From positions 141,363 to 205,362 of the forward strand of contig JAKLGA010000013.1 of assembly GCA_022710975.1 (NCBI GenBank): a stretch of DNA of 64,000 nt. Reading direction: 5' to 3'. The number at the start of each line of letters is the position of its first letter. Position 1 is the stretch's first letter. Shown piece after piece: positions 10,674-55,394 of the stretch. The notes under the pieces are model-generated. The model searched no databases, was not told the origin of the DNA, and saw only the letters and a list, made by a program, of their open reading frames with translations. This DNA is from Myxococcota bacterium (GTDB lineage: Bacteria > Myxococcota > B64-G9). The translations under genes were made by a program, and so were the position numbers.

Positions 10674-11588
10674 TCAGGGCGCCGGCGGGGGCGCGCCGAG
10701 CGCGGCCGCCTCGGCCGCGGAGGCCGCGCAGCGGAAGCCGTAGTGGTGGTAGGGGCTGTTCGACGGCACGTGCTGGCGCCGGTAGAACGTGGTGGCCTGC
10801 TCGGCCGGCCAGTACCAGGAGCCGCCGCGCACGACCCGCAGGCTCATGCCCCGGCAGGGCTCCGCGCCGCCGCAGGGGCCGCGCGGGTCCTGGCCGCGGC
10901 AGGCCGGGCCGCACTTCGAGTACGGCGTGTACCAGTCGTTCACCCACTCCCAGGCGTTGCCCGCCATGTCGTACAGCCCGTAGGGGTTGGGCGGCCGGGT
11001 GCCCACCTCGTAGGTGCGGCCCTTCTCGGGGGCGAAGCCCTTCCAGGGTGTGCCGCAGGAGCGCTTGCCCTGGGCGTCCATGATCACCGCCCGCTCGCAG
11101 GTGGCCGGCTCCTCGCCCCAGGGGTAGGTGCGCCCGTCCGTGCCGCGGGCGGCCTTCTCCCACTCGGCCTCGGTGGGCAGGTGCTTGCCGCGGGCCTTGC
11201 AGAAGGCCACCGCGTGGTACCAGCTCTGGCCTACCTTGGGCTGGCGCGGCCGCAGGTAGTCCCTGCCATAGGCGGTCTTGGCCGGCTTGCACTTCTTCTC
11301 GGCCACGCACGCGTCGTAGGCCTCGACCGTCACCTCGTGGGTGTCCATGAAGAAGGTCTGCAGCCAGACCGCCTCCTGCGGCCGGGCGTCCCTGGGACCC
11401 TTGGCGGTCCCGCGCAGGAACGGCCCGCCCGGGATGCAGGCCATGCCCGCGGGCGCCGCGCCGCAGGCGATCACCGTGGGCAGCCTGTCGGGCGGCTCGG
11501 GGGCGGGAGGCTCCGCCCGGGCGATCGACGGGGCCAGGAGGAAGGCCGACAGCAGCAGCCAGGGGATGCGGATGATCGTCGCGCGCAT
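10674..11588 (-). CDS. Formylglycine-generating enzyme (FGE/SUMF1) family protein
   Basis: Signal peptide. Motifs HEVTVEAYDACV, YGLYDMAGNAWEWV and RVVRGGSW are diagnostic of the FGE-sulfatase fold. Confidence 0.8.
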   Translation of the reverse strand: MRATIIRIPWLLLSAFLLAPSIARAEPPAPEPPDRLPTVIACGAAPAGMACIPGGPFLRGTAKGPRDARPQEAVWLQTFFMDTHEVTVEAYDACVAEKKCKPAKTAYGRDYLRPRQPKVGQSWYHAVAFCKARGKHLPTEAEWEKAARGTDGRTYPWGEEPATCERAVIMDAQGKRSCGTPWKGFAPEKGRTYEVGTRPPNPYGLYDMAGNAWEWVNDWYTPYSKCGPACRGQDPRGPCGGAEPCRGMSLRVVRGGSWYWPAEQATTFYRRQHVPSNSPYHHYGFRCAASAAEAAALGAPPPAP

Positions 11589-11626
11589 GCGCCGAGGTTA
11601 CCCCTCCTGGAGGCTCCTTTCCAGCC

Positions 11627-12746: not shown

Positions 12747-13037
12747 ATGATCCGGAAGATGCGGAGCCTGCTCGGGCTGGGCCTGGCGCTGTGCCTGATG
12801 CTGCCGCTGCTCGCCCAGGTCTCGCCCGGGACGGCCGGACAGGAGGCGGGGGAGGAGGACTCGGTCGTGTACCCGAAGGTGACCTTCATACCCTTCCCCG
12901 ATGTCATCATCACCGGCACCCTGACCATGCCCTCCAGCTCGTTCTACCTGTCCAAGCCGGACGCCAAGTTCAGCTCGCTCGTCCCGGTGCGGGCGGACAT
13001 GCTGCCCGAGCTGGTGCGCTCGGCCGACAGCCTCTAG
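12747..13037 (+). CDS. Small secreted hypothetical protein
   Basis: ATG preceded by GGAAGGAGGG. Signal MIRKMRSLLGLGLALCLMLPLLAQ. 96 aa, no domain. Confidence 0.45.
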   Translation: MIRKMRSLLGLGLALCLMLPLLAQVSPGTAGQEAGEEDSVVYPKVTFIPFPDVIITGTLTMPSSSFYLSKPDAKFSSLVPVRADMLPELVRSADSL

Positions 13038-13074: not shown

Positions 13075-13689
13075 CTACTTGCCGCGCTTGGCCTCTTCCT
13101 TCTCCAGGTCGTCGAAGGCCTTCTCCGCGTTGGCGCGCACGTAGTCGCGCAGCTTGGCGTCGAGCTCCTGCTTGCCGGACAGCAGGTCCTTGATGGCGGC
13201 CAGGTCGAGGGCCATCATGATGTAGATGGTGCCGTCGTTCGGGTCGCGCCAGGTGTCGACGAGCTGGGCGCCGTTGAGATCGCCGATGGAGATGGTCTTC
13301 TGCACCTGCAGCACGTCCGCCTCGTAGCTCTCCTTGCTCATGTCGCCGGCCGTGGTCGAGCGGGAGTAGTCCTTCATCATGTAGGCGATGTAGGTGTTGA
13401 AGACCTTGAGGATCTCGGCCCGAGCCCGGTTGCCGGCCCGATCGCGCTGCATGCTGATGTCCACCATCTTGGGCGCGGAACCCACCCCGAAGATGACCTT
13501 GCCGCGGTCGCCGCTCTGGGCGCCGCCGCCGCTGAACACCCAGGTCGGGGCCTGGACCTGGTTCGGGTTGTAGAGCGGCTGCTCCTCGGGCGGGCGGGTC
13601 TCCTCCTTGCGGGTGTCGTTGCTGGGGCAGCCGGCCAGGCCCAGGGCCAGGAACAGGGATGCGCACAGGCTCGCGTGGATCGTACTCAT
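13075..13689 (-). CDS. Lipoprotein (possibly LPP20-like)
   Basis: Only the C-terminal 204 aa of the 556-aa table ORF look natural: MSTIHASLCASLFLALGLAGC signal and lipobox, K/E/D-rich mature part. Upstream part is R/G-rich junk. Confidence 0.55.
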   Translation of the reverse strand: MSTIHASLCASLFLALGLAGCPSNDTRKEETRPPEEQPLYNPNQVQAPTWVFSGGGAQSGDRGKVIFGVGSAPKMVDISMQRDRAGNRARAEILKVFNTYIAYMMKDYSRSTTAGDMSKESYEADVLQVQKTISIGDLNGAQLVDTWRDPNDGTIYIMMALDLAAIKDLLSGKQELDAKLRDYVRANAEKAFDDLEKEEAKRGK

Positions 13690-13818
13690 GGCGTTCCTTT
13701 CGTCTTCAGGCGGTTTCTGCTTGCCCGCAGCTTGGACCCGCGTCCGGGGGCTGTCAACCCCGGCTTGTCTGCGGCCGGGTCCTCTGCCATGCTCGCCCCG
13801 ACTCTCAGGAGGCGGGCG

Positions 13819-14811
13819 ATGCCGTCGAAGACAGCCGGACTCGGAATGGTGGCGGCGCTGCTCCTGTGCGCCCTGGGCGCGCGGGCGGAGGAGGCAGCGA
13901 CCAAGGAACGGCCCATCGTGGCCGTGTTCCAGCTCCAGGACAAGGGCAAGAAGCTCGACGCGGCCACCCTGGACCAGCTCACCGAGCTGCTGGCCAGCGC
14001 GCTGGCGGAGGGCGGGGTGTTCCGCATCGTCCCGCCAGGGGACATCCGCCGGGCGCTGGTCGAGAAGTCGAAGGAGTCCTACAAGGAGTGCTACGACCAG
14101 GCCTGCCAGATCGAGCTCGGCCGCGAGCTGGCCGCGGGCAAGAGCCTGTCCGGCTCCATCCTGCGGCTCGAGCAGAGTTGCACCGTGGCGCTGGCGCTCT
14201 ACGATCTGCAGTCCCAGACCACGGACGTCACCGCCAGGGAGACCACGGGCTGCAAGGTCTCCGAGCTGCAGGCGGCCCTGGAGAAGGCGGTCGCGGCCCT
14301 GCGGGCCTACCAGCAGGGCGGACCCGCCGCGGTCGCGCCCGGGCCCGCGCCCCTGCCGGCGCTGCCGCCTGCCCCGGCCGACGGCGCTGCCCCGGCCCCG
14401 CCGGCCGGAGGCTACCTGGCCTTCGCCCAGGAGGTCGGGGGCAAGCGCAAGGAGAGCCTGGAGTCCCTCCGGCGGCTGGTCGCCGAGCACCCGCAGGGCC
14501 TGCCCGCGCTCGACGCCCGCCTGGCCTACGCCCAGGCGCTGCTGGTCGGAGGCTGGGCCGCCCAGGCGCTGGAGGTGCTCCGCTCCGTGCGCGCCGCCTC
14601 CGGCTTCGACGGCTGGGGGGGCGCGGCCCTGGCCCGCTTCCTCATGGCCGTGTGCCTGGCGGAGCTCGGCGACCCGGCCATGGCGCGCATCGAGCTGATG
14701 ACGGTGGACCAGCTCCTGCGCGGGGGCAAGGTCGACAAGAAGCACCGCGAGGGCCTGCGCCGCGCGGCCGCCAGGCTGCAGAAGAAGCTGCGCTCCGCCA
14801 AGAACCGCTGA
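13819..14811 (+). CDS. Secreted protein with conserved CxxQxC N-terminal domain (paralog of 31349..32743 N-domain)
   Basis: Internal ATG preceded by AGGAGG. Signal MPSKTAGLGMVAALLLCALGARA. Domain IVAVFQLQDKG...SYKECYDQACQIELGRELAAGKSLSGSILRLEQSCTVALALYDL aligns with the N-domain of the 31349..32743 protein. Confidence 0.6.
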   Translation: MPSKTAGLGMVAALLLCALGARAEEAATKERPIVAVFQLQDKGKKLDAATLDQLTELLASALAEGGVFRIVPPGDIRRALVEKSKESYKECYDQACQIELGRELAAGKSLSGSILRLEQSCTVALALYDLQSQTTDVTARETTGCKVSELQAALEKAVAALRAYQQGGPAAVAPGPAPLPALPPAPADGAAPAPPAGGYLAFAQEVGGKRKESLESLRRLVAEHPQGLPALDARLAYAQALLVGGWAAQALEVLRSVRAASGFDGWGGAALARFLMAVCLAELGDPAMARIELMTVDQLLRGGKVDKKHREGLRRAAARLQKKLRSAKNR

Positions 14812-14942: not shown

Positions 14943-17066
14943 TCAGTTGCAGGTGAGCGAGAGGGTGTAGGGGCCGGTCTCGCCGGAGTAGTAGGTGGTG
15001 GCCTCGATCATCCAGGTGCCGCCCTCCAGGATGGTCCCGCGGATGCGCGCGTCGTCGCCGCTGCCGCTGTTGTCGTCGTAGTCCTGGAGGAAGCCGTCCG
15101 GGTCCAGCAGGATCAGGAACGGGTCCACCGCGTCGCTCTTCAGATTGATGGTGATGTCCTGGTCGGCCTGGGCCTCGAACAGGTACACGAAGCCGTAGGA
15201 GCCGTAGCGGTCGGGCGCCTCGCAGGCCGGGCTGAAGTTCCCCTGGAGGCTGTCCCCGCAGGCGATCGAGCCGGTGCAGTCGTCGCCCCCTCCGCAGGTG
15301 AGCGTCAGGGTGAAGTCGCCGCCCGTGGCCGACGAGTAGGTGGTGGCCTCGACGGTGTAGGTTCCGCTGGTGGGCAGGGTCGCGGAGAGCAGGGAGTCCA
15401 GGCCCGACCCGCCATCGTCGTCCTCGTCGAGCAGCGCCCCACCCGGGCCGAGCAGGTACAGGTAGGCGTCGAAGTCCGGGCTGGAGAGCGCGAGGGTCAC
15501 CCGGTCTCCGGCGCTGCCGGCGAAGGTGTAGGCGCGGGCGTAGGCGTAGGGGTCCTGGGTGGAGACGCAGCCCGGGGCGAGGGTGCCGCTCGCGCTGCCC
15601 CCGCAGGCGATGGCCGCGCTGCAGTCGCCGGCGTCGGCGCAGGTGACCCGCAGGGTGAAGGCGCCGCTCGTGTCCGCGGCGTAGGTGGTGGCCTCGATGG
15701 TGTAGCTGCCGCTCGCGCTCAGGGCGTAGACGATCTGCGACTCGCGGATCGATTCGCCGTCGTCGTTGTAGGCCAGCTGCGCCCCGCCCGGGCCGAGCAG
15801 GTAGAGGTAGGTGTCGACGGTGCTGGACAGGTCGATGGTCAGCACCTGGCCGGCCGTGCCCTGGAGCACGTACTGCTTGGCGTAGCTGCCGGCGCGCTGG
15901 GTGGACTCGCAGCCCGGCTCGAAGCTGGACGAGGCCGTGCCGCCGCACTGGATGGGCGCGGTGAACTCGGTGGCCGGGTCGCAGCCGACGGGATCTTGCG
16001 CGCAGGCGCCGGTGGCGGCGTCGCAGTGCGAGCCGGCCGGGCAGGAGGTCGCGTCGCACACGCACTGGCCGTCGGCCAGGCGGCACACGGTCGTGGGGGG
16101 GCAGTCGTCGTCGCCGGTGCACACGTTCTCGCACTGGCAGGTGAGCGGATCGCACACCTGGCTGCCCGCCGTGCACAGGCCGCCGCAGCAGTCGGTCTGC
16201 TGGCACTGGTGGGTGCCGTAGTTGCAGGTGGCCGGCGCCGGGCAGTCCGAGTTCGAGTCGCAGCCCGGCTTGCAGAGGCCCGCGCCCAGCTCACACCACT
16301 GGCCCGCGGGGCAGCTCTCCAGGCTGCAGCCGGGCTGCACGCAGAAGCCGTCCTGGCAGACCTGGCCCGCGGCCGGGCAGTCCGCGTCGATGGCGCAGTC
16401 GGTCTCGCGGGCCACGCACTTGGCTTCCACGCAGAGGGGCAGGGCCGGATTGACGCACTCAGAGTCCGCGATGCAGCCGCTCTGATCGGCCGCGCACTCG
16501 CCGAAGTTGCAGAAGAAGCCCACGCAGCAGTCCTCGTCGCCCAGGCACACGGCCGCCGGGGCGGCGCACACACCGCCCCGGCACACCTGGCAGCCGTCGC
16601 CCACGCAGTCCTCGCGGGTCTGGCAGGACACCGGCTGGCAGATGCCCGCCTCGCACACCTGGCCTGCGGGGCACGCCGCGTCGGCCTCGCAGCGCGGCGA
16701 GCACACGCTGCTCGCGCAGGCCTCGCCCGCGTAGCAGTCGCAGTCGCTCAGGCAGGTGGCGGGGGCCGGCCTCTCCTCGCACCTGAGGCTGAAGCGGTTG
16801 CAGGTGTAGCCGTGGAGCCGGTCGCACTCGAAGTTGCAGCCGGAGGGGCAGGGGGTCTCCAGGCTGGTGCACACCCCGTCGATGCACTGCAGGCCCGCGC
16901 AGCAGTCCTCCGGGGCGGAGCACACCAGCGCGCAGCCGCCGCCGTCTCCGCCCCCGTCCGGCGGGCCCCCGTCCGGCGGGGAGATCTCCTGGCCGCAGCC
17001 GGCCAGGGTCCAGGTGACGCCGACGAGCAAAACCAGGAGGGGCGAGAGGACGCGGACTCGCAGCAT
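14943..17066 (-). CDS. Cys-rich repeat lipoprotein with three C-terminal pre-peptidase C-terminal (PPC)-like domains
   Basis: Internal ATG (MLRVRVLSPLLVLLVGVTWTLAGC) preceded by GGAGGAG. About 350 aa of Cys-rich repeats, then three about 110-aa repeats ending YTIEATTY...TLRVTC, YTVEATTY...TLTLTC and WMIEATTY...TLSLTC. Confidence 0.7.
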   Translation of the reverse strand: MLRVRVLSPLLVLLVGVTWTLAGCGQEISPPDGGPPDGGGDGGGCALVCSAPEDCCAGLQCIDGVCTSLETPCPSGCNFECDRLHGYTCNRFSLRCEERPAPATCLSDCDCYAGEACASSVCSPRCEADAACPAGQVCEAGICQPVSCQTREDCVGDGCQVCRGGVCAAPAAVCLGDEDCCVGFFCNFGECAADQSGCIADSECVNPALPLCVEAKCVARETDCAIDADCPAAGQVCQDGFCVQPGCSLESCPAGQWCELGAGLCKPGCDSNSDCPAPATCNYGTHQCQQTDCCGGLCTAGSQVCDPLTCQCENVCTGDDDCPPTTVCRLADGQCVCDATSCPAGSHCDAATGACAQDPVGCDPATEFTAPIQCGGTASSSFEPGCESTQRAGSYAKQYVLQGTAGQVLTIDLSSTVDTYLYLLGPGGAQLAYNDDGESIRESQIVYALSASGSYTIEATTYAADTSGAFTLRVTCADAGDCSAAIACGGSASGTLAPGCVSTQDPYAYARAYTFAGSAGDRVTLALSSPDFDAYLYLLGPGGALLDEDDDGGSGLDSLLSATLPTSGTYTVEATTYSSATGGDFTLTLTCGGGDDCTGSIACGDSLQGNFSPACEAPDRYGSYGFVYLFEAQADQDITINLKSDAVDPFLILLDPDGFLQDYDDNSGSGDDARIRGTILEGGTWMIEATTYYSGETGPYTLSLTCN

Positions 17067-25532: not shown

Positions 25533-27863
25533 TCAGCGCGGGGTGATGGTGCCCGACGGCCAGTCGATGTCGCACACGTACCAGTCGGAGTCCTCACCCG
25601 AGGTGGAGTGGGTGAAGGTCTGCATGAGCGCGCCGTTGATGTACACGTTCACCGTGACGCCGTTCGAGGCGTAGTTCTCCGAGCCCGGGTAGTCGTGCAC
25701 GAACACCGTGTACCGGCCCGAGGCCGGCACCGGGATGTTGATGTTCTCCGGCCCGTCGCCCGGGATGTCGTCGAGGTCGAGGCGCGGGTTGTCCGCGGCC
25801 ACCCCGGCCTGGCCCCATTCGAGCGTCCCGAAGGGGGTGGGCACACAGTTGGCGTAGTAGCAGTCGGAGCGGGTGCGGGGGATGCCGTTGGGCGCCAGCA
25901 GGTGCAGATCCATGTCGTCGTTGGTGAGCGTCCAGTACATCTCGATCCACAGCTCCTGGCTGGGGGCCACGTTGACCTGGGCGTAGCAGATCTGGCTCTG
26001 CTGGCCGATGTCGTTGACCACGACCAGGCTGGCGATGTAGTCGCCGGCCAGATCCACGCTGGTGGTGCGGTTCGGGCCCGTGCCCAGGAGGCGCGCGGCC
26101 GAGCCCGGCGGGAAGGCGAAGATGTTCCAGCGGTACTCGGTGATGGTGCGGGCGGGCGAGGTGTCGTAGGAGCGCGAGCCGTCCCACACCACGTTGTCGA
26201 AGGGCAGGGCCTGGGCCGGGCTGCCCGAGCAGACCGCGATGGGCCCATCGCCGTCGGGCCGGGCGAACCCGTTGATGTCAACCCGCGTCTCGTCCCCGTC
26301 CTTGTCGTTGGCGAAGATGCTGAGCGTGCCCACGTCCTGGCCGAGGTCGGTCGGGTGGTACGAGATCTTGACCGGGGTCGGGGAGGCGTCGGCGGGCTGC
26401 AGGCTGAGCGGCATGGCCGGGGCCGACACCAGGCCGAACTCCTGGGCCGCGGAGTTCACGCTGAGCTCCACCCGGTCGATGACGCAGGTGTCGCTGCCCA
26501 CGTTGGAGATGATGAGGTCGGTCTCGTTGCTGCTGTCGATCGGCACCACCCCGAAACTCACCGCGAAGGGGGTCACCTGGATGTCGCAGGCCGCGTCCAC
26601 GGCCCGGCCCAGCAGCACCACGGTGCCGCTCAGGCCGGTCACGGGGTCCGAGGACTGGTCGTTGGAGTAGATCTCCACGCCGCCGCGGTCCGAGCCCGGC
26701 CCCTGGGGCGCGTACTGCACCTGGACCTGCACCACGGCCTCCGGGGCGAGGTCGGAGGGCAGGGCCGGCAGGCTGATCAGGCTGAAGTCCGGGCTGGTGC
26801 CCGCGGCGGGCCGCACGTCATCCAGGTGCAGGGCCTCCAGGCCGCAGGAGCGCAGATCGATGGGCAGGGTCACCACCTCGCCCACCCGCAGGGCGCCGAA
26901 GTCCAGCACCGCGGGCTCGGGGCACACGCGCGGGGCCACCCCACGGCCGAGCACCGGGAACTCGATCTCGGGCTCGCTCACGTCGGTGGTGCTGACGCGC
27001 AGGCTGTCGCGGAACTCGCCGCCCCAGGGCGGGGCGAACTGGACGGTCACGTCGAAGGACGCGCCCACCGCCAGCTCGAACGGGAACAGGGTCGCGCCCA
27101 GGTCCACCTGCATGCCCGTGCCCTGGCGGATGACCAGGGCCACCTCGTAGGCGGTCAGCGCCTTCTGGCCCAGGTTGCGCACGGTCACCCGGCGGGACTT
27201 CTGCTGGTCCATCTCCACGTCGCCGAAGTCGAGGATGAACTGGTCCTTCTCCACCTGGTCGTTGCACATGTCCTCGACGCCCTGGCAGGCGGGCTCCCCG
27301 TCCCCGCCCGTGCAGGCCTGGAAGCACACCTGGACCTCGGGCGTCACCCCCTCGCCCGTCACGTTCACCGTGAGCTGGGTGTGCAGGGCGGTGTTGAACA
27401 GCAGCACGAAGCTGGCCTGGTCGCCGCCCGGCTCGCCCGGGGCGTAGGCCACGTCCAGGATGAGGTCCCGGCCCGGGCCCACGCTCAGCGTCTCGCTGAG
27501 GGTGTAGGGGCAGTCGGGCTTCATGCTGCCGCCGTCCAGGCAGGAGATCATCACGTCCCCGCTGTTGGCGGGGTCGGGCGTCACCCCGGCCAGCTGCAGG
27601 TCGCCCTGGCCCTCGTTGCGCACCAGGAGGTAGCGGTGGGCCATGGTGCCCACGTCCACCGTCCCGAAGGGCACCGGGATGGCGTCGCCCTCGGGGATGG
27701 GCTGGTAGAGCTCGAGGGCCGGCGGCTCCGGCTGGGTGCCGACGAAGTAGCGCTCGATCAGCGGCGAGGTGAGCCCGAACTGCGAGTCGTCGCAGTCGCA
27801 GGCGTTCGTCGCCAGCAGGAGCAGGAGGCCCGAGAGTGCAACCACGGTCCGGGTCAGCCGCAT
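25533..27863 (-). CDS. Large surface lipoprotein with multiple Ig-like beta-sandwich repeats
   Basis: ATG preceded by GGAGG. Signal MRLTRTVVALSGLLLLLATNAC. Repeated LDFG.V.VG... segments (choice-of-anchor-D / ASH-like). 776 aa. Confidence 0.65.
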   Translation of the reverse strand: MRLTRTVVALSGLLLLLATNACDCDDSQFGLTSPLIERYFVGTQPEPPALELYQPIPEGDAIPVPFGTVDVGTMAHRYLLVRNEGQGDLQLAGVTPDPANSGDVMISCLDGGSMKPDCPYTLSETLSVGPGRDLILDVAYAPGEPGGDQASFVLLFNTALHTQLTVNVTGEGVTPEVQVCFQACTGGDGEPACQGVEDMCNDQVEKDQFILDFGDVEMDQQKSRRVTVRNLGQKALTAYEVALVIRQGTGMQVDLGATLFPFELAVGASFDVTVQFAPPWGGEFRDSLRVSTTDVSEPEIEFPVLGRGVAPRVCPEPAVLDFGALRVGEVVTLPIDLRSCGLEALHLDDVRPAAGTSPDFSLISLPALPSDLAPEAVVQVQVQYAPQGPGSDRGGVEIYSNDQSSDPVTGLSGTVVLLGRAVDAACDIQVTPFAVSFGVVPIDSSNETDLIISNVGSDTCVIDRVELSVNSAAQEFGLVSAPAMPLSLQPADASPTPVKISYHPTDLGQDVGTLSIFANDKDGDETRVDINGFARPDGDGPIAVCSGSPAQALPFDNVVWDGSRSYDTSPARTITEYRWNIFAFPPGSAARLLGTGPNRTTSVDLAGDYIASLVVVNDIGQQSQICYAQVNVAPSQELWIEMYWTLTNDDMDLHLLAPNGIPRTRSDCYYANCVPTPFGTLEWGQAGVAADNPRLDLDDIPGDGPENINIPVPASGRYTVFVHDYPGSENYASNGVTVNVYINGALMQTFTHSTSGEDSDWYVCDIDWPSGTITPR

Positions 27864-28066
27864 GGGAACCTCCGCGGAATGGACCACGCCCTGGACACGC
27901 TGTGTGGATCTCGAATGCTCGCCCGTCCTTCGCTGTCACACTCTAGCATCGCTGTCAATAGTGTGCCAGGGATCACAAACCCGATTCCGCCTACTTTGTG
28001 GGACGTTGTGCCACCTTGGGTGATGTGTGACATCCTGGCCCGGTGGAGACTCGACCGCGAGGAGGG

Positions 28067-31000
28067 TCAGAGCTCCGAGCAGGTGGCGGTGGCGACCGCC
28101 GGGTTGCCGTACACCTCGAGGGACCACGGGTTGCAGGTGGCCCCGCTGTAGTACCTGACCTGGAGGTACACGTACCGGCTCGAGTCGCTGCCCGAGGGGA
28201 ATCCGAGGACGCATTCCTCCTCCCAGCGGAGCTCGACCTGGTCCAGGGTGGTGCCGCCGTTGGACGAGCTGTCCGCGACCGTGCTGCAGCCGTCGCAGTA
28301 GGCGAACAGGTCGTAGTCGGTGTTGAGGCCCGGGGCCAGGGTGATGATCGTGCTCAGGTAGAGGCAGCTGGACCAGTCCTCGTAGGTCTCCATGACGTAG
28401 AGCCGCAGCCAGGTCTCCCCCCGCCCGGAGTAGGAGATGCGACCGGCGCCCTCGTCCCCGCTGATGTCGCCGATGTCGGTGTAGCTGCCGCAGGCGGGGT
28501 TGGTGTCGAGATCGAACTCGCAGCCGTTGGCCGGCAGGTTGTTCAGATCGCACCAGCCCGCGTTGCAGCTCTCGATGGCGCAGGTGCCCGTGCCGCAGGT
28601 GGCGGTGGCGTTCGCCAGCGGGCCGCAAGGGGTGCCGCAGAAGCCGCAGTCGCTCAGGCTGGTGAGCTGGGTCTCGCAGCCGTCGATCGGATCGCCGTCG
28701 CACGAGCCCCACAGGCTCGAGCAGCTCGGGGAGCACAGGCTGTTGGCGCAGGCGATCCCGCCGTGCGCGTTGGTGCACACGGTGTCGCAGTCGCCGCAGT
28801 GGGCGGGATCGTTGTCGGTGCGGGTCTCGCAGCCCGCGCTCGCGTTGCAGTCATGGAAGCCCCAGTCGCAGGCGGTCAGGGTGCAGGCGCCCGTGCTGCA
28901 GCTCTCCACGGCGTTGGGCAGCTCGCAGCGCACGTCGCAGGTCGAGCAGTCGTCCAGCGTGTTGGTGGGGGTCTCGCAGCCGTTGCGGGGCAAGTTGTCG
29001 CAGTCGCCCCACAGCGGATCGCACTCGGGTGTGCACAGCCCGCCCACGCAGGGGTTGTCGCCGTGCTGGGCGGTGCACACCACGCCGCAGCCGCCGCAGT
29101 TCTGCGGGTCGGTCTGGGTGTCCGTCTCGCAGTCCGGGTCGGCGTCGCAGTTGGCGAGGCCGGCCGGGCAGCCCTGGCACTGGCCCTGGAGGGTGATGGT
29201 GACCAGCGGACGGCCGAGATCGCTGGACAGGATCTCGACCGCGCCGCTGGCCGGGCCGCCGGCCGTGGGCTGGTAGAGCATGGTCACCAGGATCTCCCCG
29301 CCCGCGTCGGGGATGAGCGCGGGCAGGACCGGCACGCCCTGCAGGCCGAAGGCCGGGGAGGAGCCCGAGCCCATGCGGATCTCGTTCACCGCCAGCGGGT
29401 AGGCCGAGGCGTTGCGGATGGAGAGGGTCGCGCTGCGCAGCTCCCCGATGGCCGCGGCGCCGAAGTCGTGGGCGCTGGCGGGCGTGGTGAAGATGAGCGA
29501 GTCGGTCCCGCGGGCCGAGAGGCTGACCGCCACCCGGCCCACCACGCCGTCCACGGCCACGTCGGGATCGTTCGTGTCGATGAGCAGGCTGCCGTTCTGG
29601 ATGCCCGCGGTGGTGGGGGCGAAGCTGATCTGCAGTTGCACCTCCTGGCCCGAGGGCACGGGCGCGAAGGCGGCCGGCTGCCAGGTGTAGTCGGCGGTGG
29701 TGCCGGTGGCGCGGGCCACCGCCGCGACGGTGAGCGGATCGCCGCCCGTCGAGCGCAGCACGAGCGGCAGGCTGCGGGTCTCGTGCAGGCCGAGGGCCTG
29801 GTCGAGCTGCACGTCCCCGAAGGCGAGCGCGGCCGGCTCGGGCACCAGCTCGACGTGCGCCGGCTCGTAGCCCTCGGCGTGGAGCGCCACCCGCAGCTCG
29901 CCGACCGGGTCGGAGGTGGTCGCCACCAGCTCCCCGGCCTCGAACCCGACGTCGGCCGGGGCGAAGGTCAGCTCGACCCAGACCATCTCGCCCATGGGCA
30001 CGACGTGCGGGGCGGTCGGCAGGTTGGGGAGGTCGAGGGAGCCCGAGGTGAGGCTCCACTCGGCGCTCACCCCCTGCAGGGACACCGAGTCGATCGCCAG
30101 GGCGGCGTCGCCTTCGTTGGACAGGTTGACCCGGACCGTGGCCTGGGCGCCCACCCGCACCCGCCCCGGGACCACCGGGCTGGGATCGGCGCTCAGGGCG
30201 CCCACCGCCCCGCGGCCGGCGAGCGGCACGCGCAGGCTCGGCGCCAGCGGGTCGTCGGTGGAGAACACCAGCTCGTCCCCGTCCACGCCGGGCGCGTCCG
30301 GGGTGTAGGTCACCTGCGCCTCGAGGAACTCGCCCTGGTTCAGCAGGGCGGGCAGCTCCGCCAGGTCGCCGTTGGCGTCGACCAGCTTGAGCACGAAGTC
30401 GGGCCGGGCCGGAGCGCGCACCTCGCTCACGGCCAGCACGGCGTTGCCCGTGCCCTGGTTGGCGAGGCTGACGCTGAGCGGGCCGCCCGACTGGCCGACC
30501 GGCACGTCGCCGAAGTCGAGGGCGGGGGTGGACAGCACGGCGCGGGCCTCGCCCTTGAACTCGGACAGCAGGTGGACCTTGACCAGGGCCTCGTCCGGGT
30601 CGTTGGAGACGATGTCCAGCACGCCGTGGTCGGTCACCCCGTCGCTGGCGGAGTAGGTCACCTGGAGGCTGGCCTCGTCGCCCGGCCCGAGGACGAGCGG
30701 CAGCGCGTCGGTGACCGCGGAGGGGATGGCGAAGTCCTCGGCGCCCGCCTCCAGGTTGAGCTGCAGCACGCGCAGCTCCTGGTCGCCGGCGTTGCGCACC
30801 ACGATGGCCTGCTCGACCGTCAGCCCCACGGCCACGTTGCCGAAGTCGAGCTGGTGCAGCGGGGGATCGCCGGTGAGCGGCGGCTGGACGATCTCGAGGT
30901 CCGGCCCGAGCGGGCCCTGGTCCGCCCCGTCCTCGCCGTCCTCCCCGTCCTGGTCGTCCCCGCCGTCCCCGCCGTCGGGCTGGCCGGACAGCACGCAGGT

Positions 31001-31225
31001 CCCGTTCCGGCAGGTCATGCCGTCCGGGCAGGCGTCGAACTCGGCGCAGGGCTGCACCCCCGGGACGCACACCCCGGAGTCGCAGTAGGTGCCGTAGACG
31101 CACTCCGTATCCTGCGAGCAGATGGCGGGGCCGTCCTGGCCGCCGGGGCTCGAGGACGAGCAGCCGGCGGCGAGCGCCAGGGCGAGCAGCAGCAGGGCAG
31201 GGGACAGGCGTCGGAGGTTCGTCAT
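28067..31225 (-). CDS. Giant Cys-rich lipoprotein with choice-of-anchor-D-like repeats and four NCGxCGxxC repeats
   Basis: ATG at 31225 (MTNLRRLSPALLLLALALAAGC) preceded by GAGGT. At least 5 LDFG-type beta-sandwich repeats. Four about 45-aa repeats of type DPQNCGGCGVVCT...WGDCD...NGCET. 1052 aa. Confidence 0.7.
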   Translation of the reverse strand: MTNLRRLSPALLLLALALAAGCSSSSPGGQDGPAICSQDTECVYGTYCDSGVCVPGVQPCAEFDACPDGMTCRNGTCVLSGQPDGGDGGDDQDGEDGEDGADQGPLGPDLEIVQPPLTGDPPLHQLDFGNVAVGLTVEQAIVVRNAGDQELRVLQLNLEAGAEDFAIPSAVTDALPLVLGPGDEASLQVTYSASDGVTDHGVLDIVSNDPDEALVKVHLLSEFKGEARAVLSTPALDFGDVPVGQSGGPLSVSLANQGTGNAVLAVSEVRAPARPDFVLKLVDANGDLAELPALLNQGEFLEAQVTYTPDAPGVDGDELVFSTDDPLAPSLRVPLAGRGAVGALSADPSPVVPGRVRVGAQATVRVNLSNEGDAALAIDSVSLQGVSAEWSLTSGSLDLPNLPTAPHVVPMGEMVWVELTFAPADVGFEAGELVATTSDPVGELRVALHAEGYEPAHVELVPEPAALAFGDVQLDQALGLHETRSLPLVLRSTGGDPLTVAAVARATGTTADYTWQPAAFAPVPSGQEVQLQISFAPTTAGIQNGSLLIDTNDPDVAVDGVVGRVAVSLSARGTDSLIFTTPASAHDFGAAAIGELRSATLSIRNASAYPLAVNEIRMGSGSSPAFGLQGVPVLPALIPDAGGEILVTMLYQPTAGGPASGAVEILSSDLGRPLVTITLQGQCQGCPAGLANCDADPDCETDTQTDPQNCGGCGVVCTAQHGDNPCVGGLCTPECDPLWGDCDNLPRNGCETPTNTLDDCSTCDVRCELPNAVESCSTGACTLTACDWGFHDCNASAGCETRTDNDPAHCGDCDTVCTNAHGGIACANSLCSPSCSSLWGSCDGDPIDGCETQLTSLSDCGFCGTPCGPLANATATCGTGTCAIESCNAGWCDLNNLPANGCEFDLDTNPACGSYTDIGDISGDEGAGRISYSGRGETWLRLYVMETYEDWSSCLYLSTIITLAPGLNTDYDLFAYCDGCSTVADSSSNGGTTLDQVELRWEEECVLGFPSGSDSSRYVYLQVRYYSGATCNPWSLEVYGNPAVATATCSEL

Positions 31226-31348
31226 GGCACCTGACCTCACTTTTCAGTCATGGGCCCGGGCAGGAGGGAGCCAACCGCGCCCCGCTCCGCTAGATACTAG
31301 CCCGCGGATGACAGATCGGTCAATTCGACGACCGGGCGGGCGGCGCGC

Positions 31349-32743
31349 TCAGAAGCCGTACTCGGCGCCGAGGGTGATGGTCAGGCGGGGCGGAAACATC
31401 ATGTCGTAGGTCACCGAGGTCTCCGGGCTCCCGGAGCCGGGGGGCGGTGGCCCCTCGATCGGGCCGGTCGGCTGGGCCATGACGCCGAAGCCGAACACCA
31501 GCCCCAGCTCGGGCAGCACCCACCAGGACACCTCCAGGAGCCCGCCGGCGGCCACCCCGGCAAACCCGCTGCTGATGTCGAACGAGAACCTATCCGTATC
31601 CCTGGCGACCTCGATCTTGGGGGCGTGGATCCACAGCCCGGCGCCCACGTTCAGGCCCAGGCGCAGCTCGACCACCTCCGCGATGGGCAGGCGGCCCTTG
31701 AGGCGCAGGGAGAAGGCCATGTAGTCGAAGGTGTCGTCGTGGAGGAAGCTGCCGCCCTGCTCGAACGTCTGGCGGGTCTCCGCGCGGAGGTAGCCCACCG
31801 CCAGGCCGAGCGAGAAGTACCTGCCGATCAGGAAGTCGAGCCCCAGGTCGAGGCAGACGCCGATGTCGGTCTCGGCCTCGCCTTCGTACGCTTGCCACTC
31901 CAGGAAGACACCCGATTCGTCGCCGAGCCCCGGGCTGAGGAGCCCGAGGTGCGCCCCGACCACCCCGAGGTGGTCGCCGATGCCTCCCTCGGGCTCCGCC
32001 TCGGCCTGCTTCTTCGAGGCCTCCTCCGCGAGCGCCTGCTGCCGGGCAGCTTCCTCCTGGAGGGCCTTCTGTCTGGCCGCTTCCTCCGCGAGGGCCTTCT
32101 GCCTGGCGGCCTCCTCCTCCTGCGTCCTCCTCTGGGCGGCTTCTTCCTCGGTGGTCTTCTGCCGGGCCAGCTCCTCCTCGAGGATCTTCTTCTTCGCGGC
32201 CGCCTCCTCGATGGCCTTGCGGTCCGCCTCGGCCTGTCGGGCCTTGTCCAGGGCGGCCTGGTCGAGCTTGCGGGTGATCCGCCCGGCCAGCGTCTCCAGG
32301 GCCAGCCCCAGCTTCTCGGGCTCGCAGTCGGACTCGACCTTCTCGGCCTTCTCGGTGGCCGCGCGCCTGAGATCGTAGAGCGTGGCGGTCACCCGGCACT
32401 TGCTGCCGAGCTTGAAGATCTGGGTGGAGAGCGTCTTCTGCGCCGCCAGCTCGCGGCCCAGCTCGACCTGGCAGGACTGGTCCACGCAGGCCTTGTAGGA
32501 GTCGGTCTGGGCCTCCTTGAGCCGGGCGCGGAGCTGGTCCCGCGGCACCACCTGCCAGCCGCCCTGGGTCAGCAGCACGGCCAGGTAATCGGCCAGGTCC
32601 TTGACCGCGCCCTCCTCCAGGGCCCTGGTCCGATCGTCGATGTCGAAGACCGCCACGATCGGCCCGGCCTCCTGGGCGAGAGCGGGTAGCGACAGGGACG
32701 TCGGCAGGGCGATGAGGGCCAGCCAGGCGAGCCCGGGGCGCAT
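31349..32743 (-). CDS. Tripartite outer-membrane protein: CxxQxC N-domain, coiled coil and C-terminal beta-barrel
   Basis: ATG preceded by GGAGG. Signal MRPGLAWLALIALPTSLSLPALAQ. N-domain paralogous to 13819..14811. EEAARQKALAEEAARQKALQEEAARQQALAEE coiled coil. Amphipathic beta strands ending ...LGAEYGF (C-terminal Phe). Confidence 0.65.
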   Translation of the reverse strand: MRPGLAWLALIALPTSLSLPALAQEAGPIVAVFDIDDRTRALEEGAVKDLADYLAVLLTQGGWQVVPRDQLRARLKEAQTDSYKACVDQSCQVELGRELAAQKTLSTQIFKLGSKCRVTATLYDLRRAATEKAEKVESDCEPEKLGLALETLAGRITRKLDQAALDKARQAEADRKAIEEAAAKKKILEEELARQKTTEEEAAQRRTQEEEAARQKALAEEAARQKALQEEAARQQALAEEASKKQAEAEPEGGIGDHLGVVGAHLGLLSPGLGDESGVFLEWQAYEGEAETDIGVCLDLGLDFLIGRYFSLGLAVGYLRAETRQTFEQGGSFLHDDTFDYMAFSLRLKGRLPIAEVVELRLGLNVGAGLWIHAPKIEVARDTDRFSFDISSGFAGVAAGGLLEVSWWVLPELGLVFGFGVMAQPTGPIEGPPPPGSGSPETSVTYDMMFPPRLTITLGAEYGF

Positions 32744-32878: not shown

Positions 32879-34168
32879 ATGCGCAAGCTGATCCCCTGGA
32901 TGCTGGTGCTGGCCCTGGCCGGGTGCGCGGAGGAGGAGGGCACCGACGTGCCTGGCGAGGGCGAGGATCTCGGGCTGGGCGAGCTGTCCTCCGAGGACGA
33001 CAAGGAAGACGGCATGTGGGGCGCGGCCACCACCTGCAAGGCCATCCCCGACCTGCCGCCGCTCTCGAGCCCGCGCATCATCGTCTCGCTGCACGGGCTC
33101 ACCCTGCGGCTGGTGGACGAGGCGGCCGGCTACGACAAGGTGTTCCCCATCGGCCCCGGCGCGATCGACTCCAGCCCCTCCTCGCTGACCTACCAGGAGT
33201 CGCTGAGCATGTACCCGCTGCTGCGGTACGACACCCAGGACTTCGAGCTGCGGCCGGCCACCATCACCGCCTGCAAGATCTGGTGGCGCGACCCGGCCAC
33301 GGGCAAGCGCCTGCCGGTGTTCGCCGGGCTGCCGTTCCTGTCCTGGAGCGGCAACTACGGCATGCACGGGCCGATCGACAACTACCGGGCGGCCAACGGC
33401 GGCACGCTGCGGCGCGGCTTCGTGTCCCACGGCTGCCTGCGCATGGAGGCCGCCGACGTGCTCGAGGTGTACGCCCGCATCCGCGGCGTGGCGCGCGTCC
33501 CGGTGCGCGTGTCGCGCGAGCCGGAGCGCGACGCGGACGGCGTGCGGGTGGACGTGCCCGGCCGCTGGTTCGGCTCGGAGTGCCGCGCGGACGCCGACTG
33601 CGACTTCCAGAACGGCTTCTGCCTGGACAACCCGGTGGGCGGGCGCGGCTACTGCGCCCAGGCGTGCTCACGCACCTGCCCGGACAAGGCCGGCTACCCG
33701 GTGTCCTTCTGCGTGGCCGATCCCGGCGCGCCCGAGCGCGGGGTGTGCGCGCTCAAGGAGCAGGCCGAGAACCGCGGCTGCAGGCCGGGCGATCACCTGG
33801 TGCCCACGGCCCGCACCCGGTTCAACGAGCCGGCCGTGAGCGCCACGGTCTGCCTGCCGGGCTCCAGGGGCTGGATCGGCGACCGCTGCCTGGCGGACGG
33901 TGACTGCCTGGACGGGACGAGCTGCGTGCCCGTGGACGGCGCCGGCGGGGTGGGCATGTGCACCCAGGGCTGCACCAGCTCCTGCCCGGACCAGCCCGGC
34001 CGGCCGTGGACGGCCTGCGTGGAGGAGCCCGCGCTCGGCGGGGACACCTGCCTGCGCCAGTGCACCCCGGACGACCAGGGCGCGGAGTGCCCCGAGGGCT
34101 TCCTGTGCGAGGATCGGCCGCGCGCCGATCCCAGCCGGCCGGCCGTGGACGCCTGCGTCCCGCTCTGA
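32879..34168 (+). CDS. L,D-transpeptidase (YkuD) family lipoprotein with Cys-rich C-terminal extension
   Basis: Signal [16 protein letters not shown]. Catalytic motif [10 protein letters not shown]. About 200-aa Cys-rich tail. Confidence 0.7.
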
Positions 34169-48273: not shown

Positions 48274-49215
48274 TCACGGCGGGCCGGCGCCCTGGTAGGC
48301 CAGGGCCGGTGGGAAGCAGTGCTCCGGGAAGATCGCGGTCAGGTCTCCAGCTCTCAGCCTGGCTGAGGCCTCCCGGAACACGCTCGCGAACGTCCGGTAG
48401 GCGGCGCGGTAGGCCTTCCAGAGCACCGCGCTCGCCGTGTGGCAGGAGGGCGCCCTGCTGCGCTTCACTTCTTTCGGAATGCCGTGCGGGTGCTGGGCCA
48501 GGATGCGGTGAACGCCCATCGGTCGGGTGCCTTCTTTCTCGTGCCGCTCCTTCGTCTCGGCCTCGATGTCCGCGACCATGGCCCGGACCTTCGCCTGTCG
48601 CGCCTCCTCGCTGAGGTCCGCCCAGCAGGGCAGAGGAGCCATCGGGATCGGGTAGCGGATGAACGCCTCCTCGGGCTTCAGGCCATCCTCGCAGCCCATC
48701 GGATCCTGGCTCGGGTCGCTGGAGCTTCTCGGCTTCCGGTGCAGGGCGGTGTGATCGACCCACACGCCCTCGAGCTGCTTCCCCTCGAGGAGGGCGGGCA
48801 GGCAGCTGACCCCGGGCCAGTCCCCGGGCATCATCACCAGGCCTTCCTTGCAGCCGTGGGAGAGGATGTAGCGCAAGCGGGCGACCAGCGCCTCGTCGTC
48901 GCGGATGGGGATGGCGCGGTAGCGCCTCTCCCAGAAGGGCCCGTGCCAGCCGTGGAGCTTGTTCACCTGGCGGGCGATGTTGGACTCGAGGTAGCCCATG
49001 AAGGCGGAGATGGCCTGGGAGCTCAGGCCCCTGAGGAGCAGGTGGAAGTGGTTGGAGGCCCAGAAGAAGGCGAAAATGCCGATCTCTGGGAACTGGTCCA
49101 GGGCGCGGCCGAGGCAGCCGAGGAGGATGGCGTTGAGCTCTTCGGAGGGGCGGAGGAGGAGCCTGCCCATGACGGTGCGGTTGGTGATCTCGAACAGGGT
49201 GCCCGGCTCGGGCAT
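48274..49215 (-). mobile_element. HuH Y1 tyrosine transposase, IS200-like / REP-associated (RAYT-like) family
   Basis: FEITNRTVMGRLLL then FWASNHFHLLL (HuH motif, cf. MPNHFHLLL of RAYTs), and GPFWERRY...RYILSHGCKEGLV...PGDWPGVS (Tyr region). R/P-rich N-terminal 107 aa of the table ORF judged non-coding. Flanked by palindromic REP-like repeats. Confidence 0.6.
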
Positions 49216-49469
49216 GAAGCGCAGCGGTCTCGGCAAGGTTCCCCTCCGTGAAACCTGCCCTGCAAACCGCTTGCCAGCTTGAGCTAGCCAACGAAGATGG
49301 CGTTGACCTGGACGCGGTCGTGGCTGACAATCGAGGCATGGCGATGGGTTGCGAGGATCGGGGACGGAGGGAGTGGTCGACAGAGCGCCAGGCCGAGGCC
49401 CTGCCTGTACTGCCTGACGTGACCGGAATCCGGTCACCGTGGATGAAAAAACCGGACACGCTCCGGGCG

Positions 49470-49630
49470 GGGCCAGGACCTCGGGAGCTGGCGCTGAGAA
49501 TAGGGTGTCACGCACTGGGGGAAAATAGGGTGGCACGCGCTGGGGCGCTGAACGACCCTGTCACCAAGACAGGGCGATTGGAAGGTCGGAGGGTCGGCGC
49601 TGAAAGACCCTGGCACCAGTACAGGGGAGA
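49470..49630. repeat. REP-like tandem and palindromic repeats (tagggtgNcacgcNctgggg x2; gcgctgaaNgaccctgNcaccaNNacagggg x2)
   Basis: Each long unit contains an inverted repeat (ccctgtc...gacaggg). The last unit at 49597-49627 recurs at 50041-50070. Confidence 0.5.
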
Positions 49631-50040: not shown

Positions 50041-50395
50041 CGCTGAAAGACCCTGGCACCAGGACAGGGGGACAGGGGGCACCAGGACAGGGGCACCAGG
50101 ACAGGGGGGCTGCGTGCGGCGTGCAGCGTGCGGCGTGCGGCGTGCGAAGTGCGGCGAAGGGCGAACGGAGTGAAGAGTGCAGTTCCTCGTTCCAGGTTCC
50201 ACGTTCCAAGTTCCTGGTTCTTACCCCTTTAAGCCTGCCCTGAGCGATTCACACACGGAAGGTCTGCCAGCTCCAGCCAACTGCTCTTAGCGATACCCAC
50301 ACGCGGGGTTTGCAAACTCACGCCAACTGCTCTAGCGATTCACACACGCAGGGTCTGCCAACACCAGCCAACGGCTCACCAGCGCTGCTCGCGGG
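50041..50395. repeat. Repeat-rich intergenic island: DR copy, (ggcaccaggacagggg)x3, (gcgtgcg)n, gttccaNgttcc repeats, and three about 47-bp imperfect tandem repeats
   Basis: Direct reading. 50239-50385 holds three units of type agcgattcacacacgNagggtctgccaNNNccagccaacNgctc. Confidence 0.6.
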
Positions 50396-51956
50396 TGGTG
50401 ACCTGGCTGCTCGGGGTGCGTGCGGACAGGGGCTGGAGGTCGCAGCCGGCCAGGGACACCTCGGGCAGCGACCCGTCGAACGCTTCCAGCCCGGTCACCC
50501 GGAGCCCGCACGCACCGCTGATGGGCTGGTCGAACAGCACCACGAAGGCGCGGTTGCTGAAGTGGTGGTGCGGGGCGCTGTAGACCAGCTTCCAGTAGTC
50601 GAGCTGGTCGAAGGCCACGCCGTCCAGCTCCCCCCGGCCCTCGAGGAACACCGCCGGCCCGGGGAACAGGGCGGTCGCGCCGAAGCGCACCGTGAGCTCG
50701 ACCCAGCCGCCCTGGAACTCCACCCGGTGGATCTCCTGCTGGACCCAGTTGGGGAAGGTGCAGGAGTCGAGGCCGCGGAGCTCGCCGCCCGCCGTCGGGC
50801 TGACGAGCAGGCTCGCGCCCAGCCCCTCCATGTCCGGATCCGCGCCGTCCAGGCTGAAGGCCTGGGTGCCCGGGGGGCCGCTCACCCGGACCTGGAGGGT
50901 GTAGCCCTCCCCGCCCGGGGCCTCGAGCGGCTCCTCGAGGTTGAAGCTCGTGGCGTACTGGCCGTAGGTCGCGGTCACCTGGCCCACGCCCGAGAGCGCC
51001 GGCGAGGCCTGCGGATCGAGGAAGGCCACGCACACCGGCAGCCGGTAGGGCTCGCTGCCGGCGGCGTCGGGCAGGCGGTACTCGCCGGGCAGCACCCGCG
51101 CCTCGGTCTTGCGCTGGTAGGCCTCCTCCAGCCCGGTGCCCGCGGGCTCGTTCCACTCGCGGTAGGTCAGGCAGTAGACCGCGTCCTGGGTGGCGGTCAG
51201 GGTCGTGGTCCAGGCGCCTCCCACGTAGGCCATGGGATCGTCCGGGCAGTCGAGCGAGCTCCCGTCGCAGGCCTCGGCCGCGTCGCAGGAACCCGCCGAC
51301 GGGCGGCACTCCGTCCCCGGCTGGGCCGGGCTCCAGCCGGCCGGATCGCGCTCCGGGTCGCACACCGCGCAGGCGCGCGCGGGGTCCACGCTGCCCACGG
51401 GCAGGCAGACGCCGCCGATGTCGCAGCAGGCCGCGTCCTCCAGGCACAGGCCGCTGGCCGGGTCCCGGCTGTAGCCCGGGGCGCAGCTCGCGCAGGCGCC
51501 GCCCGTGTAGCCGCTGTCGCAGGTGCACACCGCCTGGCCGGTCGAGCCGTCGCAGGCGCCGTGGCCCGAGCAGGAGTCCGGCCCGCACGGATCCACCACG
51601 TCGGGCACGCAGGCGCCGGCCCCGTCGCCGTGGTGGCCGGCCGCGCAGGTGGAGCAGTCCGCGCCCGCGTAGCCCGTGTCGCAGGCGCAGTCGATCACCC
51701 CTCCTACCAGGCTGCAGGCGCCGTGGCCCGAGCAGGAGCCCGCCTCGCAGACCTCGTCGGCCACGCACGCCTGCCCCTGCTCGTGGAAGCCGGTCAGGCA
51801 GTCGCCGCAGATCGCGTGTCCCTCCACGGCCAGGCACCCGCGGTGCTGCTCGAGGCACTGCGTGTCGTCGGCGCAGGGGTCGGCGACCGTGTTGCCACAG
51901 GCAGACGCAAGGACGAAAAGGACAGCAAGGACGCAAGGGACGAAGCGGTCTCGCAT
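50376..51956 (-). CDS. Lipoprotein with EGF-like Cys-rich repeats
   Basis: Signal MRDRFVPCVLAVLFVLASAC. Repeats CSGHGAC....C.C..GY.G..C..C. 526 aa. 11-bp gap from upstream gene suggests an operon. Confidence 0.6.
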   Translation of the reverse strand: MRDRFVPCVLAVLFVLASACGNTVADPCADDTQCLEQHRGCLAVEGHAICGDCLTGFHEQGQACVADEVCEAGSCSGHGACSLVGGVIDCACDTGYAGADCSTCAAGHHGDGAGACVPDVVDPCGPDSCSGHGACDGSTGQAVCTCDSGYTGGACASCAPGYSRDPASGLCLEDAACCDIGGVCLPVGSVDPARACAVCDPERDPAGWSPAQPGTECRPSAGSCDAAEACDGSSLDCPDDPMAYVGGAWTTTLTATQDAVYCLTYREWNEPAGTGLEEAYQRKTEARVLPGEYRLPDAAGSEPYRLPVCVAFLDPQASPALSGVGQVTATYGQYATSFNLEEPLEAPGGEGYTLQVRVSGPPGTQAFSLDGADPDMEGLGASLLVSPTAGGELRGLDSCTFPNWVQQEIHRVEFQGGWVELTVRFGATALFPGPAVFLEGRGELDGVAFDQLDYWKLVYSAPHHHFSNRAFVVLFDQPISGACGLRVTGLEAFDGSLPEVSLAGCDLQPLSARTPSSQVTTREQRW

Positions 51957-51966
51957 GGGAGGTCTC

Positions 51967-55254: not shown

Positions 55255-55394
55255 CGGGCGACTCCTCGGGAAGGGGGATGTCTGGGGCAGTCTAGATCCT
55301 GCGCGCCTTTCCCTCAAGGAGGCCTTTGCCTTGTTTTCTCAGGGACCTTCTTGGTATCGTGCGCTGGATGCGTCGGGGAGGGAGGAGAATCCAG

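Follow-up and report, generated by a model that had tools for sequence, protein, structure and literature searches.

A predicted LpoB/TolB-N-like domain with four conserved cysteines in secreted proteins of uncultured Myxococcota

Introduction

Two genes on one contig of a Myxococcota bacterium encode secreted proteins whose N-terminal parts carry the same arrangement of cysteines, which raises the question of what this shared block is, how widely it occurs and what it might do in the cell envelope. The genes, here called A (13819..14811, + strand) and B (31349..32743, − strand), lie in a window of 64,000 nt, i.e. the whole stretch of DNA analysed. A preliminary description had proposed that both contain a conserved secreted domain of about 110 aa, about 45% identical between the two, with a CxxQxC motif and a conserved cysteine triad; it could not assign this domain to a named family and suggested a disulfide-stabilised interaction module.

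Genes A and B share an N-terminal domain

The window has a G+C content of 73% and most long ORFs in it are therefore spurious. Similarity between A and B might then reflect chance or base composition, or the ORFs might not be genes, and the genome is indeed rich in long spurious ORFs (e.g. a 556-aa ORF antisense to gene A, 13075..14745). However, BLASTP under composition-adjusted statistics aligned the two proteins over 150 aa with 40% identity and 57% positives (E = 3e-27), GC3 in the proposed frames is 0.96 (A) and 0.94 (B), both genes are preceded by a Shine-Dalgarno sequence and thousands of homologs exist. BLASTP, GC3 and the homolog search thus refute this explanation, to which we give practically no weight. 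GC2 is about 0.5 in both genes. The Shine-Dalgarno sequence is AGGAGG before the ATG of gene A and GAGGAGG before the ATG of gene B at 32743, which is for this reason preferred to an upstream GTG (32767).

A and B are distant paralogs with a common secreted domain, as first described, and the N-terminal homology is clear, although the earlier identity figure was slightly high (38% over 134 HMM-aligned domain columns, 40% by BLASTP). The cysteine spacing, C-x4-C-x24-C-x23-C, is the same in A (C91, C96, C121, C145) and B (C94, C99, C124, C148; 472-aa numbering), as had been noticed, with four conserved cysteines in place of the triad; the shared block is genuine but extends over about 133 aa. 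No third copy of the domain was found within the 64-kb window by tblastn. Both proteins begin with AxA-type signal peptides of the signal peptidase I type, read from the sequence: MPSKTAGLGMVAALLLCALGARA in A (13819..13887, +), with predicted cleavage before EE, and MRPGLAWLALIALPTSLSLPALA in B (32675..32743, −), with predicted cleavage before QE. The shared domain starts 5-9 residues past the predicted cleavage site, and neither signal peptide contains a canonical lipobox.

Gene A encodes 330 aa plus stop: the signal peptide is followed by the four-Cys domain (13912..14310, +; residues 32-164), a Pro/Ala-rich linker recognised by its composition (14311..14412, +; residues 165-198) and a C-terminal helical, TPR-like domain (14413..14808, +; residues 199-330). 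The last assignment comes from weak Pfam matches, both below cut-off (TPR_6, 0.005; TPR_19, 0.042). Homologs of this C-terminal domain, and full-length homologs of A, were found only in P0164 (100% identical) and P0165 (82% identical).

Gene B encodes 464 aa plus stop and has a different architecture. Its four-Cys domain (32264..32662, −), assigned by an AlphaFold2 (AF2) model and Foldseek, has cysteine codons at 32486-32488, 32471-32473, 32396-32398 and 32324-32326 (−). It is followed by a charged, Glu/Ala/Lys/Gln-rich spacer of ~95 residues (31982..32263, −), α-helical in a single-sequence AF2 model, and an all-β domain of ~210 aa ending in LGAEYGF (31352..31981, −), a probable outer-membrane β-barrel whose sequence is 100% identical to that of the Myxococcota MAG protein P0204. 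The helix (residues 142-242, pLDDT 78-90) is the sole confident part of the single-sequence model of full-length B, which has a pLDDT of 45, is therefore unreliable and was kept out of the fold search. The same layout is common to six MAG orthologs (L001, L002, L003, L007, L008 and L009), with spacers of ~40 to ~140 residues. On the C-terminus of B itself the OMP_b-brl model (PF13505) scored 15.1 bits (E = 0.027) against a cut-off of 28.7 bits, and three of the seven sequences (B plus orthologs) gave matches, the best with E = 8.1e-6. The AF2 model has ~10 strands here at pLDDT below 50, the terminal Phe is seen in the sequence, and a profile search of the PDB with this region returned only noise. 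That B is an outer-membrane β-barrel protein holding the four-Cys domain in the periplasm is thus probable rather than proven.

The domain is predicted to adopt an LpoB/TolB-N-like fold

An AlphaFold model of the domain, built from a 20-sequence alignment of metagenomic homologs, has a pLDDT of 83, a pTM of 0.75 and the topology β-α-β-α-loop-α-β-β-β-α. Foldseek searching of the PDB with this model gave 52 matches with E ≤ 1e-3, every one of them in the same fold group: the C-domain of LpoB (4q6l, E = 3e-7, TM 0.66; 4q6z, E = 4.8e-6), PelC (about 2e-6), GNA1162 (6e-6), the TolB N-domain (about 3e-5, with the top TM-score, 0.69) and CsgG (1e-4), with FlgT and HpaA at weaker E-values.

Sequence models place the domain close to, but just outside, the named families, and their sub-threshold matches are consistent with one another. 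Protein A matched DUF3280 (PF11684) at 1.7e-4 (22.4 bits, cut-off 30.1), over positions 20-109 of the 138 in the model, LpoB (PF13036) at 2.5e-4 (21.4 bits, cut-off 22.3), TIGR02722 (LpoB) at 2e-5 (24.7 bits, cut-off 110.55) and TIGR02800 (TolB) at 0.018 (14 bits, cut-off 343.15); B had no Pfam LpoB match. Among 100 relatives, Pfam matches were to DUF3280 (30), LpoB (17) and CsgG (3). The best DUF3280 E-value was 7.9e-7 and the top bit score inspected was 29.7, against the cut-off of 30.1. A small number of relatives score above the Pfam LpoB cut-off (P0017, 25.7 bits; P0018, 24.0; P0191, 25.0) and part of the family is therefore already labelled 'LpoB' in databases. Comparison with E. coli LpoB by hhalign was marginal (E = 0.055) and made the segment with the hallmark cysteine motif an insertion relative to that protein, and a profile search of the PDB with the four-Cys domain yielded no sequence match.

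Taken together, model and scores give solid grounds for placing the four-Cys domain, as an unnamed branch, in the α/β fold superfamily of LpoB, TolB-N, PelC, GNA1162 and CsgG. The earlier view that it could not be assigned has to be revised accordingly, with LpoB and DUF3280 lying just short of their Pfam cut-offs; the fold superfamily is well characterised, while at curated thresholds the block falls in no characterised family.

Four cysteines, predicted to form two disulfides

Alignment of 303 domains from the family gave the consensus PIVAVF...L..YL......G.YQVVPR....RL....K.SYK.CYDQSCQIELGRELAAQK......K.G..C.VT..LYDL..A......A....C, with all four cysteines (C1 to C4) present in 286 of them. 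The CxxQxC motif first noted in A and B is real, and falls within the segment that the family conserves most strongly (S-Y-K-x-C-Y-D-Q-S-C-Q-I-E-L-G-R-E-L-A-A). C1 alone is absent in five sequences, while in others, about a dozen in all, cysteines are lost in pairs: C1 and C2 together (TSCC, FTCC, NTCC, A-CC, H-CC and --CC at the four positions) or C3 and C4 together (CCFG and CC--). Loss of one pair with the other kept is what would be expected of two independent disulfides rather than of one four-ligand site.

The domain model is consistent with this pairing. Helix 3 has C59 and C64 on either side of its N-terminus. C89 occupies the second position of β4, and C113 follows the end of β5 by two residues; since β4 and β5 form a single antiparallel hairpin, with C89 and C113 at its open end, these two cysteines would be brought together. 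Two disulfides, C1-C2 and C3-C4, therefore appear most likely. Near-invariance of the four cysteines, and the location of C1 and C2 inside the most conserved motif, might also be taken to indicate a metal or redox centre (Zn or a thiol-disulfide exchange site) in place of structural disulfides, but the domain is exported to the oxidising periplasm, C-x4-C ... C-x23-C is neither a CxxC redox motif nor a zinc-ribbon pattern, and C3 and C4 flank a β-hairpin in the model. We regard such a centre as very improbable. The suggestion of a disulfide-stabilised interaction module is retained as the best reading of the domain, with both the co-loss of cysteines and the hairpin position of C3 and C4 fitting two disulfides.

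Model confidence is lowest in the loop containing CxxQxC (pLDDT 51-56, residues 51-70), yet no part is more conserved in sequence, a pattern typical of functional surfaces that require a partner.

A very large family with varied fusion partners

When 1.84 billion 50%-identity cluster representatives were searched exhaustively with a profile of the domain, 5,968 were recovered at E < 1e-3, 1,953 of them below 1e-10 and 1,048 below 1e-30. A motif scan of GTDB species genomes gave 99 confirmed matches. The best 80 of these come from 28 assemblies, all of them uncultured MAGs, labelled Myxococcales, Myxococcota or 'Deltaproteobacteria' save for one 'Fibrobacteria' bin and one unclassified bin. A MAG of this kind is also the source of the window. 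Further copies and fusion partners, which the preliminary description had proposed looking for, are plentiful: up to 11 copies of the domain per MAG were present among the best 80 matches, attached to many different partners. No match was obtained in a plasmid collection (tblastn).

The domain almost always follows a signal peptide directly: in 216 of 270 proteins it starts no more than 45 residues from the N-terminus, and true lipoboxes are few. Partner domains identified among 100 members were PEGA (38), CarboxypepD_reg (13), FGE-sulfatase (9), Sel1 (5), OMP_b-brl (5) and Lcl_C (3), with OmpA, PDZ, TonB_C and HEAT also present. Some single chains carry the domain in tandem: P0023-P0026, P0031 and P0037 each have two to four copies, in some at both ends, and in P0023 PEGA repeats lie between the terminal copies. 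Chains of this kind would suit an array-forming or multivalent module. One triple-domain member is named 'PEGA domain protein' in GenBank.

FGE-sulfatase is fused to the four-Cys domain in nine of 82 domain-bearing proteins at the 80 related loci and is encoded by a separate nearby gene at five (L018, L022, L023, L025 and L038). This association may reflect a functional link or just the commonness of the FGE-sulfatase domain in Myxococcota.

Such tandem chains also bear on whether the domain might assemble beneath the outer membrane into a ring of the PelC or CsgG type, in which case the proteins would belong to a gate for secretion or export. The leading fold matches include PelC dodecamers, the PelBC transporter and CsgG, B has its own probable β-barrel and Pfam CsgG recognises the few relatives mentioned above. 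However, no conserved polysaccharide or curli export genes accompany the family in the window or at the 80 related loci, PelC and CsgG are lipoproteins whereas the majority of members are not, and the domain lacks room for the transmembrane hairpins of CsgG, so that a ring of this type seems improbable.

Genomic context

No conserved gene neighbour was identified, the biggest neighbour cluster being present at only eight of the 80 related loci. The LPP20-like, 96-aa, YkuD and metallophosphoesterase neighbours described below do not recur beside the family at these loci, and recurrence of the PPC and of the ASH/Ig-like neighbours is limited to two loci each. Hypotheses that window neighbours are operon partners of A or B, with recurrence at none or two of 80 loci, were rejected.

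Around gene A, the contig carrying the 82% identical ortholog has the same order of genes: M14 peptidase, FGE-sulfatase, metallophosphoesterase, 96-aa ORF, A and PPC protein. The FGE-sulfatase (SUMF1-like) gene (10674..11597, −) lies 2.2 kb upstream of A and keeps this placement in the ortholog contig. The 96-aa secreted ORF (12747..13037, +) is situated between the metallophosphoesterase gene and A and has no family match; an ORF of the same length is kept at the same position in the ortholog contig. Downstream of A, the PPC-domain protein (14943..17066, −) is secreted, very Cys-rich and has three PPC (pre-peptidase C-terminal) domains.

A divergent LPP20-like lipoprotein gene (13075..13689, −; lipobox LALGLAGC; Pfam LPP20 1.7e-4, sub-cut-off) begins 129 bp upstream of A, and its fusion in the ORF list with the antisense strand of A generates the spurious 556-aa ORF mentioned above. 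This gene is missing at the matching position in the 82% ortholog contig, where there are only 77 bp, and was found beside none of the 80 related loci. An LPP20 plus LpoB-like pair, as an analogue of flgP/flgO, was considered and dropped in view of that 77-bp gap.

Two large secreted proteins are encoded next to B (25533..27935, − and 28067..31240, −); they combine ASH/HYDIN/Cep192-type Ig-like domains and DUF1573 with long C-terminal regions rich in cysteine. The second begins 108 bp downstream of B on the same strand and may be co-transcribed with it; proteins resembling these two account for the ASH/Ig-like neighbours at two of the 80 loci. On the other side, divergent from B across a 135-bp gap, lies a gene for a Cys-rich putative lipoprotein (32879..34168, +), in which a YkuD L,D-transpeptidase domain is recognised above cut-off (2.7e-5).

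This last gene is one reason to ask whether the domain is a genuine counterpart of LpoB in function, reaching from the outer membrane to regulate a peptidoglycan synthase or remodelling enzyme, with B as the clearest case. The LpoB C-domain is the best structural match, Pfam and TIGRFAM scores approach threshold, B has an anchor-spacer-head layout and one relative contains a peptidoglycan-binding OmpA domain. Against this, the TIGR02722 score of A is far below its cut-off (24.7 versus 110.55 bits), the alignment to E. coli LpoB is marginal with the key motif as an insertion, a YkuD neighbour occurs at none of the 80 related loci, spacer length varies widely among B orthologs (~40 to ~140 residues) and the majority of fusion partners (PEGA, FGE-sulfatase, Sel1) are unconnected with peptidoglycan synthesis. 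The UB2H domain of PBP1b, the target of LpoB, is not known outside Gammaproteobacteria, which also counts against an LpoB analogue, and no PBP gene was seen among the window ORFs scanned. We consider LpoB-like regulation rather unlikely. It and the PelC/CsgG-like ring are both less likely than the docking role discussed below, given the scores, the diverse fusions and the lack of both a lipid anchor and genomic partners.

Elsewhere in the window, two further, likewise very Cys-rich secreted proteins (50376..51983, − and 51967..55338, −) have a teneurin-like EGF match in one and Dictyostelium CTDC repeats in the other, and the stretch is unusually rich in disulfide-rich extracytoplasmic proteins. 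An ORF at 48274..49560 (−) has an IS200-like Y1 transposase domain (6.5e-6) and a GC3 of 0.82, below that of its neighbours, and could represent either a mobile element or a REP-associated transposase that has been domesticated.

Discussion

The block shared by A and B belongs to an unnamed and very large family within a known fold superfamily, at the fringe of Pfam LpoB and DUF3280, and is not a new kind of system. The analysis supplies a name and a fold for a block annotated 'hypothetical protein' in thousands of metagenomic proteins, and since at least 1,048 strong 50%-identity clusters belong to the family, mostly without a curated model, a new family model beside LpoB and DUF3280 is justified. 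A search of the literature found nothing on the family, no report of PEGA combined with LpoB, and mention of DUF3280 only in unrelated work.

With export behind a signal peptidase I-type signal peptide, the fold and the structure of the family established, the function that we favour, and think probable, is that of a disulfide-stapled periplasmic docking or oligomerisation handle, a cysteine-bearing branch of the LpoB-like superfamily placed on varied envelope proteins. This role is argued from a fold whose members act quite differently. It is suggested by the N-terminal location of the domain in many unrelated envelope proteins, by tandem copies and many paralogs, and by relatives that act through protein-protein contact; its steady N-terminal position and many fusion partners in particular mark it as a candidate docking module shared across the myxobacterial cell envelope. 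As its structural relatives do, it would mediate protein-protein docking or self-association beneath the outer membrane, and the bacterium might use it as a common 'handle' for envelope proteins of many kinds, each with its own working end. The C1-C2 disulfide would close off the CxxQxC loop where helix 3 begins, and C3-C4 would pin the β4-β5 hairpin together at its open end. The most conserved segment, which E. coli LpoB lacks, is the likely binding surface. In protein A the handle would be tied through the Pro/Ala linker to a TPR-like protein-binding domain. Protein B would be anchored by its probable C-terminal outer-membrane β-barrel, with the ~95-residue helical spacer extending the handle into the periplasm, i.e. 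the LpoB design (outer-membrane anchor, spacer, globular domain) in reversed order.

A more far-reaching version, in which uncultured Myxococcota use the domain as a lineage-specific handle for sorting or anchoring, comparable to SLH domains and served by a shared hub under the outer membrane, is unlikely, though we would rank it somewhat ahead of the LpoB and ring alternatives. If it were true, each cell would have at least a dozen envelope proteins docking onto one hub, whether a partner protein, peptidoglycan or an array formed by self-assembly, with the CYDQSCQIELGRELAA disulfide loop as the docking surface. The idea of a docking module has no bearing on any long-standing open question, but it can be tested, and the family is a reasonable target for those working on the Myxococcota envelope.

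Comparison with known systems

LpoB is an outer-membrane lipoprotein that activates PBP1b, a peptidoglycan synthase. The four-Cys domain resembles LpoB (PF13036, TIGR02722) in its predicted α/β fold, periplasmic location and near-threshold Pfam scores, and B follows a similar logic of outer-membrane anchor, long spacer and globular head. A and B, however, have neither a lipobox nor a disordered N-terminal linker, and the domain is N-terminal, while that of LpoB is C-terminal. Four conserved cysteines and an insertion of ~15 residues bearing CYDQSCQIELGRELAA set the family apart from LpoB, which has neither, as do fusion to many unrelated domains and occurrence in Myxococcota rather than enterobacteria. 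DUF3280 (PF11684) is the most frequent Pfam match of the family and aligns over most of the domain.

The N-terminal domain of TolB (6pnv, 2hqs), a protein-docking module which binds TolA, appears to have the same fold and, like the four-Cys domain, is periplasmic, N-terminal and situated directly after the signal peptide. In A and B the four-Cys domain is followed not by a six-bladed β-propeller, as in TolB, but by TPR-like (A) or helical and β-barrel-like (B) C-terminal parts, and a tol-pal context is absent from the window. PelC and CsgG form rings of 9 to 12 subunits and, with GNA1162 (DUF799), are lipoproteins from export operons, whereas most four-Cys members are not lipoproteins and have no linked export genes; CsgG also has transmembrane hairpins, for which the four-Cys domain is far too small. 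Common to PelC, GNA1162, CsgG and, according to the model, the four-Cys domain is the core fold, and the three known proteins all sit under the outer membrane.
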